Part shown: piece after piece, positions 21,001-45,000 of the stretch
How the letters are laid out: every line of letters begins with the position of its first letter
Numbering within the stretch: the first letter of the stretch is position 1
NCBI RefSeq assembly: GCF_013167455.1
Contig: NZ_CP038328.1
Length of the DNA stretch: 64,000 nt
Origin: Escherichia coli O157:H7
GTDB taxonomy: Bacteria; Pseudomonadota; Gammaproteobacteria; Enterobacterales; Enterobacteriaceae
Reading direction: 5' to 3' (one strand)
Made by a program: the position numbers

Positions 21001-24000
21001 TGAAAATTGACAGTGCATTATCGTGGGATGCCATTGACGCAATACGAGACTATAGTATTTCTGATATTTATCTTTATCCTGAACAAAAAACAATAAATTG
21101 TGTCGTTGAGATTGAAAACATTGTCTTTGGCGGTTACATTTATACATTGAACAACGGCGTCACATTACAAAACATAGAAAACTCTTTAAAAGATTCTTCA
21201 TGCCATTATGTCTTAAATGGCTATACAGAATTTGTTAACTGTTTGAGACAACTTACTTCAGGAAAGACTGAAAGTGTTCATCGCACCATCAATAAACTGA
21301 ACTATGAGAAATTACCTTTTGGATTTATCATTGCCGCGTTTGCTATACTAAAGATAGCATTTAAAATAAAATTCAGTAAAAATCATGTAAATATCCGAGC
21401 ATTATTAAATGACATCAATTATTTTATGACTTATCAGGGCGAGTCCATTAACCTTATTTCACTGGATCACGAATACCCAGAGTCCTGTCTTCAAAATGAC
21501 ACAAACACATATTTATTAGGAAGAGTAATATTTCTGTATAACTCAATGATTTATAAGTTCATAAACTGTCAGGAACATGAAACCAATAACATTCACTCAG
21601 CTATGATAAATAACCTATTACAGGAAGTTGATATAGCCCTTGGTAAAATAAATGACATTATAGACAGCAGAAACATATCAGCCCCCCATGAACTGGCAAA
21701 TATTCTTACCCGCGAAAAAATACTTACAACACGGGAAAAAAAAGGAAACCTGATAAGCCTGTTTGATGGATTCACTTTATTCCATTGTGTTGGAATGATA
21801 ACCTTTCTTATCCATTATCTCAGAACACCTGAAGAAAAAGTTGAAAATATATTTATGTTATATGGTGCAGATAAAAACAATAAACTACGCAGAAGACTGA
21901 TTTATGACGCACTAGGAATAATTCAGTCTCAGCAGGAGTGAAGAGTTAAACAGGCAAATTATTTTTTATAAAAAGGGGATTGTTAAGTAATCCCCTGTTA
22001 ATCAAAATACGCTTTCCTGACGATCTGATAATTATCAGCTCAATACATTTGACATAAAAGCGGTTTCTTAATTACTACTGCTACGATCACATATCAAATC
22101 ATGATCGTACAATATACATTTTCACTATTATTTATTCACAATTTGAGACATCACATAATCCGCCCATGCCTGCATCATCGGTACACGCTGCTCCAGTAGA
22201 TCAGTACGATGATATGCCGCCTCAACCTTATTTTTCAGCGTATGAGCGAGCGCCCTTTCCGCCAGATCCCGCGAATACCCCTGTTCGCTACACCAGTCCC
22301 TGAATGTTGAGCGAAAACCATGTGCCGTGGCAACTCGCCCCGGAATGTCACTGACGGCTTTCTTTTTACGCAGAAAACTTGTCAACACCATATCGGAAAG
22401 GATCTGCTGCTTTCTGGGTGAAGGGAACACCAGTTCATCATGCAGGCCACGTATATTTTCCAGAATGTAAATAGCCTGCCGGGATAAAGGAACACGATGC
22501 TGTATCCTGGCTTTCATTCTTTCTGCAGGTATAGTCCATACCCGCTTATGAAAATCAATTTCAGCCCAGCGCATTCCCCTGGCTTCGCCCGAGCGAGTTG
22601 CTGTAAGTATCACCATTAATAACAGTGCGCGGGTAACATTATAAGGTTCATCGGTATACACACTGGTCGCCACAAAAAGCGGTAACTGCCTCCAGGGCAT
22701 TGCGGGTTGGTGTTCATCACGTCCTCTTGTCTGCTGAGGAAGCAAATGGTCAACCACATCAACAGGATTTGCTACACAAAAACCGTGCGCCCATCCCCAC
22801 TGCATAACAACATGAATGCGCTGTTTAACCCGGCTTGCCGTTTCTGACAAGGTTAACCAGACTGGACGCAGTGTTTCTGCCACGTCCGCAGCCGTAATCG
22901 AATCCAGCGTTTTTGCTCCCAGTTGAGGAAACGCGTAATTCTCAAGCGTCGATAACCACTGCCTTACATGCTTTGGATTTTCCCATCCAGGAGACAGTTC
23001 TGCATGTACACGCCTGGCTGCATCGGCAAATGTTGGGATAGCGACTTTCTCAGATTCAGCCTTTTTAATCTCCAGAGGATCATCACCTGCAGCAAGTTGC
23101 TCTCGCATTATCCGGGCAGTACGTGCAGCTTCAGCAATACTGACCTCTGGGTAAGTTCCCAATCCAGCATTACGTCTTTTTTGTGTCACCGGACTTACAT
23201 AACGAAAAACCCATTTCCCCCGCCCCTTTACTGAAGAAGGATGAAGGGTCAGTCCGGTAATTCCCCCATGGGGCAATGGTTTGTCATCAGGTTTGATATG
23301 TCTTGCTTTCGTATCCGTCAATACTGCCATACGCTAATTCCCGTCACTCTGGTATGCCATCCAGTATGCCATTAGTCTCTCGCTTCACTAAGAATACATT
23401 AGATAATATCGGACAACAAAAAGTGTAATACATTGTTTATAATGAAATTATATAACACCCCTGGATTAAGTCAGATTTATTTCAGGCGGTCCCCCTCACC
23501 GCCATATTTAAAGAAGAGCTCGTACGAAAGTACGGGCTTTTTTTTCGTATATTGCACACACCGGGTGCCCCCGCCCACGTCTGTTTGGGCGAGGGGAAAT
23601 CGTGCACATCAACTGTCTGGTTGCTCAGTCAACAATCAAAATGCGCAAGAGAGTACAGAACATATATGTATTATCTGGTCACTTCCTATCACTTCCTCAC
23701 TTATTAAAATGCCCCCAACGGAAATACATGTCACATGCCATCATAAAATCGTTATGCCAGAGGAATCGACAATAGAAAAAATAGTAAATTAAGCACGGTA
23801 CATAGCAGAGTAAAAAATAGGCTTCAAACCAAATCCGCCATTCCACAAGCGTTGCCAATACCGACACCAGCGTAATCCACATCACTTCAATAACCAGCAA
23901 TATGAATAACCGAAGCCAAAGCGGCTTGGCAAAAAAGGTCGACAATGCATTTTCACTGGAGAAAAAGAGATCGATTTCCTGCAAAAAAAGCCTGCCCAAA

Positions 24001-42000: not shown

Positions 42001-45000
42001 TGACCAGAGCACGCGTGTTGTCGAACGTGTTCTGCGCCTGCAGAGTCAGAGGACCATCCTCAGCGATAAGACGGCTGTTGTTGTTATAGATGTTCTGCCC
42101 GGAAAGCTCGATGCCTTCCTTGCCGACCATTCCACCCGTTTGCTGAGGCATGCCGAAGTACAGACCATAAGCATTACCGAAGTTATTGCCATCGCGGTTT
42201 TCGATACTGCCGCGCGCATTTATCTTCAGTTTTTTGCTGGCCACGATCAGCGCTGTGTTGTTATTGACGCCAGACATCGACTCCATCGTGATGTTCTGCC
42301 CCATCATGAAGCCGCCGTGGTTATCCACGGAGTTGGCTAACAGGGAGATATCACCCTCTTCAGAGCTGATCACGCCAATATTATTGGTCAGGCTGCCGCC
42401 AACGGCGACTTCAATACCCTGCTTACCGCTGATCCCCCCGGTATCGTTACGCAGAGAGCTTCCCTTGATAATCACTTTGCTGTTGGACAGAATTTTGCCC
42501 GCATAGTCGTCGATCGTGCTGTAACTTGACAGGGAGACGTTGCCATTAGACGCAATCTGTCCGCCGTTGTTATTGATGTTGTTCGCACCAATTTCTACGC
42601 CGGTATCTGCAATAATGCCCAGAGAGTCAGAACTGCCGGTATCGGCGGTTTTGGTTGAACCATTATTTACGCTACCTGCCGCGCCAATAACGATATGCCC
42701 GGTGGACGAACGGATCAGACCTTTGTTGTTATCCACATTACCGTTACTGATAATGGCGATATCGCCGGTGGTCTGGATATCACCGTTGTTGTTATTCAGC
42801 GCAGCGGATTCAAGACCCACATAGCCACCGCGAATCTGACCATTGCTGTTGTTGAGCGTTCCGGTTTTCAGCGCCACGAGCCCCGCTTCAATCCCGACAG
42901 AACTCCCTTTACCAGAGTTAATCAGCGTGGCGTTATTGGTATCAACCGCCAGCATTCCTGCAGCCGCAAGCTTGCCGTTAGTATTGTCAATCGTACCGCT
43001 GTTAACGTAGATATCGCCCATCGTAGAGATGTTACCCGCACGGGTATTCACGATAGTATTCTTGTTGGTATTAAGCGAGATAGTGCCTACAGATGTCACC
43101 GTACCGGTGGTGTTATCCAGAGTACCATTTGTTGTCAGGTTGATCGTGCTTGCAGACTGAATCTGGGCGTTACTGTTTAACAGGTTACCTTTGGAATCGA
43201 TGCTGACACCATTAACACCCCCAGCAATAACGCCGAGGTTGCGAACCCCCACACCTTTCTCGGTGCTGACCAGACTGATTTTGTTCGCATACATTCCGCC
43301 CAGTTTGGCAACATCTACGCTGTAACCGTTACGGGACCCCGTGGCGGATACGCTACCGGTCACCTGGCCTGCGGCATTAACATAGTTATTGCCAGCAACA
43401 ACGTTCAGCTCATCGGCAGACACTTTGCCGTTAACTACCACGTTACGGGACAGAATTTCTGTCGGGCTGGCGTTATCCAGTTTACCGAGCGTAATGGTAC
43501 CGCCGTTCACGGAGTAACCGGCCAGCTTGTCATCCTGGATATCCGGCGTCCCGGTGGTTAAGGTAAGTTTACCTGTATTGATTGAACCGCCACCGTTTAC
43601 AGTAATACCATTCGGGTTGGCAATAATCAGATCCGCTTTATCCCCTGCAACTTCCATCATCCCATTAATGGTTGAAGGATTTTTGGAAGTAACCTCATTC
43701 AGGATCACCTTCGCCGACCCGGAGGTCAGATTACTGTTTCCCTGAATATTTCCGGCAAGTGAAGTACTGGATTCATTAGCGCTATTATTGAAAACGACAC
43801 CATTTTTATCAACGTTTAGGTTATCCCAGATATTATGAGATAAACCGCTACCGTTAGGTTTGTTGATGTCAACGACTGGCACACCATTGGCGTTATATAC
43901 CGTTCCATTTTTTATGACTAATCCCGCCGCTTGAGAAGCTACAGGAAAAGACAACATCATAAGTATAGCAATAGGGGTTAATGCTTTCCCCACCGTTGCT
44001 TCCTTACTTAAATTTATCATCGCCACTAACGTTTTCCTTATTGATGCTATTCATTTTGGACATGCAGATCACTTTTGATGACTCACGGAATATCAGCAAA
44101 AATGATTGCGGCAAATCCTATCACCTGGCGCAATAAAAAATCACGAAAAATAAGCTGAAATAAGGACTCAAAAAAACAACTAAGAGTTATTGTTTTTTCA
44201 TCGAACGGCGAAGAACCTAACTTACTAAAACACAATAATTTAAAAGTCCCCCATCCTTGCTCCTTGGGTGAAAAAAATCCAATTTAGAGGACGTCTGAAA
44301 TGATATGTAGTTTTCTGTACGACATCATTTCAGACATCCGAATAAAACAACAAAGTTGGTGAGTTACAATTAATTTAAATCTTATTATTTGATTAACAAA
44401 GCATCATCATTACTGCATCTTATTCTCTATATCTTTTACGTCGGGGTAGATTCTTTATGGTCATTACGGGCAGGCGACATTTCATTATATTACCATTTGC
44501 ATTCACGCATGTAACCCTTAAGAGTTATATAAAAAGGAAAGAGTTCTTGCTCATGGTATTACTGAGATCGGATTAACCATGAGGTTAGCTATATAGAGAG
44601 CTTTGGCTTTGCGACAATTGGCTTAAGCAGCCACATTATGCCTGGCTTATCGTTGAAAGGGAGAAAGAAGAGCAAAACGGTTTGGCAAGCTTTCATTCCC
44701 ATCTAATAGCAATCACCGCTATACATCATCCCTTAACGTATTCTGGTCTTCATAAAAATGTTATTCTAAATTAAAGATTGTAATGATTTTAATAATGTTG
44801 TTATTATTTTGCAACAAATCAATCTAACACAATGATTATTCGCGATTTTTATTAGTTAAGAGGAATTGTTTTTACAGATTGCGCTACAATTCCGCTCATT
44901 TCTCACCACAGGAAAAGCTGAAGTAATCTTAAATGACTGTATTAACCCTTTTCTCCGCTGCCAGCACTCTTAAATATCGTTGTTTTATTCTTATAAAAAC

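Follow-up and report, generated by a model that had tools for sequence, protein, structure and literature searches.

Two-partner secretion (TPS, type Vb) has been described in Escherichia coli O157:H7 for OtpA and OtpB, the products of two genes in O-island 47 (OI-47), which extends over z1528-z1556 and 31.7 kb (PMC8565820). In two citing papers the pair is presented, after Choi, Dawson and Bernstein (2007), as a genuine TPS system in which OtpB triggers the secretion of OtpA (PMC5422565; bioRxiv 10.1101/2020.04.13.038984). The first of these lists OtpA as a TpsA protein of unknown function (PMC5422565); the second places otpAB (ECs1282-1283) directly downstream of the fimbrial locus loc6 and reports that the OtpAB authors proposed a link with it (bioRxiv 10.1101/2020.04.13.038984). 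As far as these citing papers reflect it, the published work on the two genes concerns the mechanics of secretion. The present analysis deals with a window of 64,000 nucleotides of the O157:H7 chromosome (contig NZ_CP038328.1, assembly GCF_013167455.1), in which the same two genes head a co-directional block of 17 intact minus-strand open reading frames running from 44026 to 23697; the block corresponds to the right-hand half of OI-47 plus the backbone gene ycdU. We are confident that the 17 genes form one conserved functional module, and we consider it reasonably likely that a lipid made by this operon is sent to the outer membrane and acts with OtpA. Perna et al. in 2001 reportedly entered OI-47 under the words 'an adhesin and polyketide or fatty-acid biosynthesis system'.

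Open reading frame calls and the RefSeq annotation of identical O157:H7 chromosomes agree on the 17 genes, at the positions given in the original prediction, which had been made from the window's sequence; a 20.5-kb query matched the O157:H7 chromosomes of many genomes at 100% identity. Counted from the RefSeq start codons, the intergenic distances in the direction of transcription are 88, 15, 13, 3, 21, 35, 73 and 4 nt from the first gene to the ninth and -4, 10, -17, 0, 8, -4, 10 and -4 nt from the ninth to the last, so that three junctions are 4-nt overlaps. The gaps had been predicted correctly save for one overlap, which is of 17 and not 4 nt. The absence of an internal terminator was borne out: a consensus scan of the block gave no convincing intrinsic terminator in the minus-strand gaps, only weak matches that lie nearly all within coding sequences. 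A better terminator-like site is found on the minus strand at 23534-23521, after ycdU; it belongs to a hairpin with T-runs on both strands, read directly from the sequence at 23514..23548, between ycdU and the attachment repeat of the neighbouring island OI-48, which is probably the end of the transcription unit. Upstream of otpA, an AT-rich intergenic region (44027..45416, about 33% G+C) contains minus-strand segments that resemble the sigma-70 consensus (45154-45126, 44814-44786 and 44792-44763) and probably serves as the promoter or regulatory region of the block. An Rfam scan gave no match within or near the 17 genes.

The functional coupling of the TPS pair with the other genes is best supported by conservation across genera. 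Through homologues of the cluster-specific 317-aa protein (see below), 40 related loci were collected and all 17 O157 proteins were mapped onto each. Group 1 was defined as the loci whose 317-aa protein is at least 48% identical to that of O157. It includes Enterobacter, Kosakonia, Klebsiella, Leclercia, Silvania, Buttiauxella, Mixta, Pantoea, Izhakiella and Rahnella, and further a Serratia sp., Tenebrionibacter, two Acinetobacter, Aeromonas veronii and a Neisseria sp. The 17 genes stand in identical order in 27/27 of the group-1 loci with sufficient flank, which places the arrangement far beyond chance. In all 27 with enough upstream sequence, tpsA and tpsB lie immediately 5' of acpS, the third gene of the block, and in 26 of them the tpsB stop is separated from the acpS start by 4-23 nt; the exception is Enterobacter mori (locus L016), where tpsB appears truncated (77% coverage) and the gap is 357 nt. 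The retention of the TPS genes with the pathway across several orders and at such a spacing strongly reinforces the membership of the pair, as had been claimed, and the synteny was found to reach Acinetobacter, Aeromonas and a Neisseria. The flanking genes vary by genus, and in Acinetobacter equi unrelated genes abut tpsA and the ycdU-like gene exactly, which identifies 23697-44026 as the mobile conserved unit. Judged from this organization, the module is horizontally mobile and very probably one operon. In Mixta mediterraneensis (locus L018), the permease and LolA-like genes are set apart by an additional stretch of about 1.3 kb, and the 3' end of tpsA is disrupted; this and the irregularity in E. 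mori are signs of local decay in some carriers.

The same association is seen within E. coli. Among 5426 complete genomes, the biosynthetic part was detected in 390 (380 with at least 80% of it) and the TPS part in 382 (379 at 80% or more), the two co-occurring in about 380 and never being found apart save for a few truncated copies. About 2,290 further genomes match the ymdE'/ycdU end alone. The matching counts indicate that the TPS and biosynthetic parts were gained or lost together, most strains retaining only a stump. The K-12 pseudogene ymdE has been recognized as an IS3-truncated form of the FabD-like gene (PMC4951805), and the K-12 pair ymdE'/ycdU is a remnant of the 17-gene block. Between O157 and KV7, a non-O157 commensal from pig faeces, dN/dS is 0-0.28 for each of the 17 genes, the unclassified ones included; purifying selection thus acts on the block, which is conserved as a whole. 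KV7 carries it beside an intact tRNA-Ser gene (serX) and ghrA, with no OI-48.

The two TPS genes have the domains expected of a type Vb system, namely an N-terminal TPS domain in the exoprotein and an adjacent transporter with POTRA domains and an Omp85-type barrel. OtpA (1270 aa, 40214..44026) matches PF05860 and TIGR01901 (77 bits, cut-off 29.1), and its TPS domain is followed by beta-helical repeats; no toxin, haemolysin-type or other C-terminal domain was found with Pfam or NCBIfam. OtpA contains an internal tandem duplication of 344 aa (residues 898-1241 against 520-863, 59% identity), which in large part explains its extra length over the orthologues of 847-909 aa in Kosakonia, Klebsiella, Acinetobacter and Neisseria; the form found in Aeromonas veronii is 1288 aa long. 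The extreme C-terminus, ...GG..G...N.G..(V/I)G(L/M/K), is kept in the group-1 orthologues. OtpB (539 aa, 38506..40125), which RefSeq names 'ShlB/FhaC/HecB family', has the domains PF08479 (POTRA_2), PF17287 (POTRA_3) and PF03865 (ShlB).

The remaining genes encode a set of chain-building enzymes related to type II fatty-acid synthases (FAS) and polyketide synthases (PKS), followed by a Lol-like exporter, and every family named in the original prediction was recovered in Pfam and NCBIfam profile searches. The discrete components of a type II FAS are present with Pfam domains and active-site motifs: acyl carrier protein (ACP), phosphopantetheinyl transferase, malonyl-CoA:ACP transacylase, ketosynthase (KS), ketoreductase (KR) and dehydratase (DH). 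In comparison with FAS proper, the enzyme families are the same, whereas the scores against the FabF, FabG, FabZ, FabD and AcpP equivalog models are all under their cut-offs and an enoyl reductase (ER) is missing. The AcpS-type phosphopantetheinyl transferase (122 aa, 38122..38490; PF01648; TIGR00516, 79.8 bits, cut-off 59.8) starts 15 nt past the otpB stop. It is followed by a FabG-like KR of the short-chain dehydrogenase/reductase (SDR) family with a YxxxK motif (253 aa, 37347..38108; NF009466, 225.3 bits, cut-off 222; TIGR01830 (FabG), 237.6 bits, under the cut-off of 297.75) and by a FabZ-family DH with an HFP...PG...E motif (182 aa, 36795..37343; PF07977), which scores 72.9 bits against the FabZ equivalog (cut-off 155.15) and shows a faint match to the ApeI-type family PF22818 beneath that to FabA/FabZ. 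The dedicated ACP (93 aa, 36492..36773) matches PF00550 weakly and carries the DS motif (LDSVD); it reaches 44 bits with NF006617 (cut-off 70) and 28.9 with the AcpP equivalog (cut-off 70.45). The FabD-like transacylase (314 aa, 24680..25624; PF00698; TIGR00128, 178.6 bits, under the cut-off of 260.9) is encoded near the other end of the block.

The condensing enzymes comprise four thiolase-fold units. An 852-aa protein (32664..35222) consists of two pairs of KS_N and KS_C domains. In 41 aligned sequences the N-terminal domain has the Cys-His-His triad without exception (41/41), and the C-terminal domain has neither His and no Cys, the Cys position being variable, with E in most and also V, I, Q, A or N. 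On these residues the protein is a true fusion of a KS and a chain-length factor (CLF), as had been proposed together with the type II logic of the pathway. The KS/CLF hallmark of type II PKS is therefore present, whereas the usual active-site Gln of the CLF, associated with decarboxylative priming, is not, the position being variable. Next to it is encoded a second ketosynthase, KS3 (407 aa, 31436..32659; PF00109 and PF02801), with a Cys-His-Tyr triad: an invariant Tyr occupies the position of the second His. The Lys and the first His are retained, as is the Cys except in one variant with Ser. The next gene overlaps KS3 by 4 nt and encodes the 317-aa protein (30486..31439), which has no Pfam match. 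It had been listed as unknown; it is the fourth thiolase-fold unit of the block, with a KS/CLF-like fold and without the catalytic triad, and is probably the partner of KS3. Highly reducing type II PKS such as the ishigamide system (Iga11/Iga12), and PfaC of polyunsaturated fatty acid (PUFA) synthases, share with the block the KS with a Cys-less CLF, the KR, the DH and the ACP-bound chain. Unlike these systems, the block has no amide-forming or tailoring enzymes and is set in a Gram-negative envelope export context; it also has no PfaA/PfaD-type multidomain proteins and no ER, TIGR02813 giving 79.6 bits (cut-off 1010), and only the KS-CLF fusion is PfaC-like.

Aryl polyene, xanthomonadin and flexirubin clusters also resemble the block. 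Their type II enzymes are discrete, with a KS/CLF heterodimer plus an extra KS, a KR and a FabZ-type DH but no ER, and they have their own ACP and a LolA-like protein; the lipid that they make is delivered to the outer membrane, as is proposed here. The block might be read as a divergent member of these pigment clusters, its product being a polyene of the outer membrane with a part in protection from oxidative stress or in biofilm formation, and OtpAB being incidental. The set of KS/CLF, KR and DH without ER, the weak ApeI-like match of the DH and the outer-membrane route with its LolA-like protein fit such a pigment, but the evidence on the other side makes it very improbable. As predicted, the hallmark genes are missing: Pfam gave no match in the block for adenylation, lyase, methyltransferase, glycosyltransferase or MMPL/RND families, and neither an ER nor a thioesterase was matched among the 17 products with Pfam and NCBIfam. 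Compared with aryl polyene clusters, the block thus has no adenylating or aryl-loading enzyme, ammonia lyase, thioesterase, methyltransferase or glycosyl- or acyl-transferases; it has one ACP and not two, an ABC/FtsX exporter in place of an MMPL pump, and a fused KS and CLF, and it adds a GcvT-family enzyme and the TPS pair. With its starter, tailoring and MMPL genes absent, it is not a member of the aryl-polyene clusters. Against PDB chains, the N-terminal domain of the KS-CLF is nearest to FabF-type enzymes (up to 264 bits), followed by the ishigamide KS 6kxd_A (200) and the actinorhodin KS (184), and scores 183 bits with 7f27, presumably an aryl-polyene ketosynthase. The FabF equivalog gives 453.5 bits, under the cut-off of 493.75, and the flexirubin FlxB model only 182 bits (cut-off 340). 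Furthermore, O157 presumably carries a separate fatty-acid/APE-like island, OI-138.

Between the ACP and the KS-CLF genes lies a gene for a GcvT-family protein (386 aa, 35296..36456; PF01571 and PF08669) with the folate-type aminomethyltransferase fold. Its Asp94, with a conservation of at least 95%, falls in alignment on the second Asp (Asp96) of 1WOO, the T-protein of T. maritima, where this residue is the catalytic one; motifs of the DxSH and RxGxxGE type are retained as well. The fold and the conserved Asp are thus those of GcvT, whereas TIGR00528 reaches 97.6 bits, far under its cut-off of 235.85, and the neighbours are ACP and KS-CLF genes and not gcvH or gcvP. By score and context, the protein is not the glycine-cleavage enzyme. 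Its gene directly follows that of the ACP in all three architectures of the locus, and the most distant contig retains FabD, ACP, GcvT, KS/CLF and ABC genes, which marks the ACP-GcvT-KS/CLF triad as the invariant heart of the system. No type II PKS or FAS that uses a T-protein-like enzyme, and no lipid cluster headed by a TPS pair, was described in the open-access literature searched.

The export genes are best compared with LolCDE-LolA-LolB and MacB, and with DevBCA, which serves heterocyst glycolipids. MacB- and LolCDE-type transporters take their cargo from the periplasmic face of the inner membrane. Shared with them are a LolD/MacB-type ABC ATPase (235 aa, 29768..30475; PF00005; TIGR02211, 227.7 bits, cut-off 307.75), a LolC/E-like permease of the MacB type, with four helices, the FtsX domain and the MacB periplasmic domain (436 aa, 27817..29127; PF12704 and PF02687), and a periplasmic protein of the LolA superfamily (262 aa, 27020..27808; PF17131), as well as the logic by which a lipidic cargo is extracted from the inner membrane and passed to the outer one. 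The structures nearest to the permease are LolE, LolF and LolC (E about 1e-14), and TIGR02212 gives 92.9 bits (cut-off 362.45). The matches to MacB_PCD and FtsX, with none to MMPL/RND families, agree with the Lol-like character predicted for the exporter. The block differs from the Lol pathway in having one permease gene and not two, a carrier that is TP_0789-like and not LolA proper (its match to PDB 3BUU, 'LolA superfamily protein NE2245', at E = 3e-34, holds at the superfamily level only), scores under all Lol equivalog cut-offs, neither LolB nor a membrane-fusion protein, and two extra exported proteins; its cargo is presumably the lipid of the pathway and not lipoproteins. The first extra protein (218 aa, 29128..29784) has an N-terminal signal-like hydrophobic segment and no Pfam or NCBIfam match; its gene was seen in 40 loci, always between those of the ATPase and the permease, and a distant homologue shows faint TPR matches. 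The second (462 aa, 25635..27023) has a signal-like N-terminus and two invariant Cys; scanning 24 members singly gave no Pfam match, and it has no sequence relative in the PDB.

The last gene of the block, which RefSeq names ycdU, encodes a multi-pass inner-membrane protein (328 aa, 23697..24683); its orthologues are likewise last in the block in group 1 and in the Proteus type. The AlphaFold (AF2) model is that of an all-helical membrane protein (pLDDT 89.8). No Pfam family was matched by 24 members scanned singly, and no fold relative was found in the PDB; the relatives in the AlphaFold database are uncharacterised membrane proteins from Paraburkholderia, Verminephrobacter, Aquipseudomonas and Desulfatitalea (15-20% identity, TM-score 0.73-0.85), one of them labelled DUF975. 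The invariant residues of YcdU are few and not catalytic-looking. The unclassified proteins of the block gave no match to the PADLOC defence models.

We rate the block as a type II PKS/FAS cluster for an envelope lipid, marked by an unusual GcvT-like enzyme, ABC/Lol-like export and a TPS head. In the scheme proposed here, the FabD-like loader would supply the private ACP, and the KS-CLF and KS3 with the 317-aa protein would extend the ACP-bound chain, the KR and DH acting in each cycle of elongation. As the block encodes no ER, an unsaturated or polyene-like product is probable, as in aryl-polyene and ishigamide-type systems, although the host FabI might reduce the chain. The GcvT-like enzyme may use folate to carry out a one-carbon reaction, with either the starter or an ACP-bound intermediate as its substrate. 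As there is no thioesterase, the chain would leave the ACP by transfer to a membrane acceptor, and YcdU is a candidate for this transfer or for flipping. Given the mode of action of the MacB/LolCDE family, the lipid would be moved to the outer membrane by the ABC system and the 218-aa protein together with the LolA-like carrier and the 462-aa protein: the ABC system would pull it from the outer face of the inner membrane, and the carrier would cross the periplasm with it and deliver it to the 462-aa protein of the outer membrane. On the cell surface, it may act together with the beta-helical OtpA fibre in adhesion, as a surface structure or in contact-dependent action.

Several observations weigh against this scheme. 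The role of the GcvT-like protein in the pathway is a guess, and only a signal-like N-terminus points to the outer membrane as the location of the 462-aa protein. Neither a HlyC-like nor any other acyltransferase for chain release was recognisable among the 17 products with Pfam and NCBIfam, and for the 15 non-TPS genes neither a product nor a transcript nor a phenotype was found in the open-access literature searched. The citing papers describe OtpA/OtpB as a self-sufficient TPS system (PMC5422565; bioRxiv 10.1101/2020.04.13.038984). A weak hairpin with a 6-bp stem and 3 G-C pairs is present at 35247-35232 in the 73-nt gap between the GcvT-like and KS-CLF genes. In the work of Choi et al. in 2007, OtpA made in K-12, which is without the pathway, was reportedly secreted with OtpB alone. 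The remaining points come from strain KV7 and from the more distant loci of group 2, in which the block is reduced. The ACP gene of KV7 (locus L050, 18793-19074) has an internal stop, the other 16 genes being intact. Group 2a comprises Proteus mirabilis, P. myxofaciens, Providencia and one metagenomic contig; a TPS-domain protein of about 840 aa is encoded directly 5' of acpS and the FabD and YcdU-like genes are kept, and TpsB, the LolA-like protein and the 462-aa protein are missing. Group 2b (Serratia silvae, Entomohabitans, Edaphovirga, Erwinia endophytica and one contig) has no TPS gene upstream, from which it follows that the lipid can exist without OtpAB. Three loci of this group (L013, L046 and L047) have a gene for a LuxR/BglJ-like regulator 5' of acpS. 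Genes for LpfD/LpfE-like fimbrial subunits precede the core on the same strand in L013 (671-4093) and L046 (38-2462), and L047 has TolC upstream and a TPS-domain gene downstream (regions 374-2765 and 19982-20893); the tie to adhesin loci recurs in group 2b, yet it varies.

The stop in KV7 bears on the suggestion that the block is an evolutionary relic, silent or decaying in O157:H7 and without present function. That most E. coli retain only the ymdE'/ycdU stump and that the upstream region is AT-rich, as is typical of silenced islands, would suit a relic as well. It is nevertheless scarcely credible for O157, where 17/17 reading frames are intact and full-length in comparison with orthologues, with no stop or frameshift to suggest the decay that could have undone the original prediction, and where the low dN/dS given above extends to every gene. 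Moreover, two papers report the secretion of OtpA by O157:H7 (PMC5422565; bioRxiv 10.1101/2020.04.13.038984).

Group 2b also bears on whether the block holds two independent modules, an adhesin-type cassette otpAB, maybe accessory to the fimbria, and an unrelated envelope-lipid cluster, linked by descent within the island. We regard this as unlikely. It would agree with the core lacking an adjacent TPS gene in group 2b, with the fimbrial genes that L013 and L046 carry in its stead, with the 88-nt and 73-nt gaps within the array and with the tie to loc6 attributed to the OtpAB authors. However, the linkage has outlasted transfer to several orders and at least one other class, with differing flanks and with protein identity down to about 40-55%; the tpsB-acpS spacing of 4-23 nt leaves no room for a terminator and a promoter, and in E. 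coli neither part is found alone, bar the few truncated copies. Fimbrial genes were considered as part of the core unit, as they are present at O157 (the divergent loc6), L013 and L046; they were excluded because the Acinetobacter equi block has none beside it.

A narrower variant of the coupling between pathway and exoprotein is that the pathway mainly attaches an acyl or polyketide chain to OtpA, or loads it non-covalently, to give a lipid-bearing type Vb exoprotein. To our knowledge, the only precedents for tying the function of an exoprotein to a lipid are HlyC/HlyA and ShlA: RTX toxins undergo ACP-dependent acylation by HlyC, and ShlA shows lipid-dependent activation. The block shares with these a secreted protein encoded beside genes that supply an acyl-ACP or a lipid cofactor, whereas it has no HlyC-family acyltransferase and OtpA has no haemolysin-type or toxin domain. 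Consistent with a lipid-bearing OtpA, tpsA heads the block in 27/27 group-1 loci and stands beside acpS even in the Proteus type without TpsB; the lack of a thioesterase implies release by transfer to an acceptor, and the group-1 TpsA proteins have the extreme C-terminus in common. We nevertheless think it improbable. No acyltransferase for the transfer is recognisable, and the core of group 2b stands with no TPS gene beside it. As TPS exoproteins cross the inner membrane unfolded via Sec, cytoplasmic ACP-dependent acylation would be unusual; the reported secretion of OtpA in K-12 with OtpB alone speaks against it as well, and a Lol-like outer-membrane route would be needless if the lipid only decorated a secreted protein. 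As to the predicted alternatives, a dedicated surface lipid or a lipid-modified TpsA, the TPS link is strong in group 1, partial in group 2a and absent upstream in group 2b, and its lack of universality argues against a product that is solely a modification of TpsA. In its boldest form, which is likewise doubtful, OtpA-type TpsA proteins would be a class of type Vb exoproteins that carry an operon-made polyketide-like lipid, covalently or tightly bound, with a GcvT-like folate step new to type II PKS/FAS, as a surface or contact-dependent effector; the carriers would then include O157:H7, the Klebsiella oxytoca and Enterobacter cloacae complexes, Proteus mirabilis and others.

In Proteus mirabilis CP122400.1 (locus L048, 7410-20369), genes for TpsA, AcpS, KR, DH, ACP, the GcvT-like protein, KS-CLF, KS and the thiolase-fold protein are accompanied by a divergent ABC set. 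The exact AcpS-type protein of this locus, which has no adjacent TpsB, is indexed in 9309 assembly blocks, and the truncated cluster appears to be very widespread in P. mirabilis. It was considered as a possible basis of the killing system of P. mirabilis BL95 that is independent of type VI secretion (T6SS), and rejected, since a follow-up study points to strain-specific operons on an integrative element and the cluster looks widespread.

The statement that no characterised system has this architecture was right only in part: the locus is already catalogued, as OI-47, OtpAB and ymdE/ycdU, and no paper was found that assigns a product to it. What is new is the conservation of the tpsA to ycdU block across genera, with its tpsB-acpS spacing and differing flanks, the low dN/dS of its genes, the distant versions that retain the core with TpsA only or with no adjacent TPS gene, the recognition of ymdE'/ycdU as its remnant and the thiolase fold of the 317-aa protein. 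OtpA and the K-12 orphans ycdU and ymdE are thereby tied to one conserved 17-gene module, which occurs in several clinically relevant Enterobacterales, and are given a context, the likely making of an envelope lipid by a KS/CLF system with an unprecedented GcvT-family partner. If the lipid and TpsA do cooperate, this would be a new way to build a bacterial surface effector and would include a new enzymatic step in type II polyketide or fatty-acid assembly; if they are not coupled, the block would be one more orphan lipid cluster in a well-known island.

On the right, the chaperone-usher fimbrial operon that diverges from otpA (45417-52040, plus strand, and beyond) is the locus called loc6 (bioRxiv 10.1101/2020.04.13.038984). 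Its genes encode, in order, a 207-aa hypothetical protein, a fimbrial subunit, a chaperone, an usher, a 444-aa fimbrial protein and a second chaperone. Beyond it are genes for an SDR, a winged-helix regulator and an EAL-domain protein; where the last two lie within OI-47 suggests that they are grvA and vmpA.

On the left, the block adjoins the tellurite/urease island OI-48, to which a P4-type integrase (22128-23330) belongs. The edge of this island, next to ycdU, is a 14-bp direct repeat derived from serX, the complement of TGGCGGTGAGGGGG, at 23492-23505, and was matched to the published serX repeat of OI-48 (PMC3064760). A tRNA gene was considered as the boundary of the block and dismissed, as ARAGORN finds no tRNA in the window and the boundary with OI-48 is this repeat. 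A 605-aa hypothetical reading frame (20124-21941, plus strand) lies in a stretch of 32% G+C between an IS1 remnant and the integrase. Farther into OI-48, at about 12789-15149 on the minus strand and in neighbouring genes, the RefSeq annotation has genes for a 'TOTE conflict system archaeo-eukaryotic primase domain-containing protein', for a Gp2 protein of inovirus type and for a YfjI-family protein, which may belong to defence or mobile elements. Rfam detects the 5' ureB small RNA (RF02514, 86.5 bits) at 1631-1909 on the plus strand, in agreement with the position of the OI-48 urease cluster, at the window's left end.

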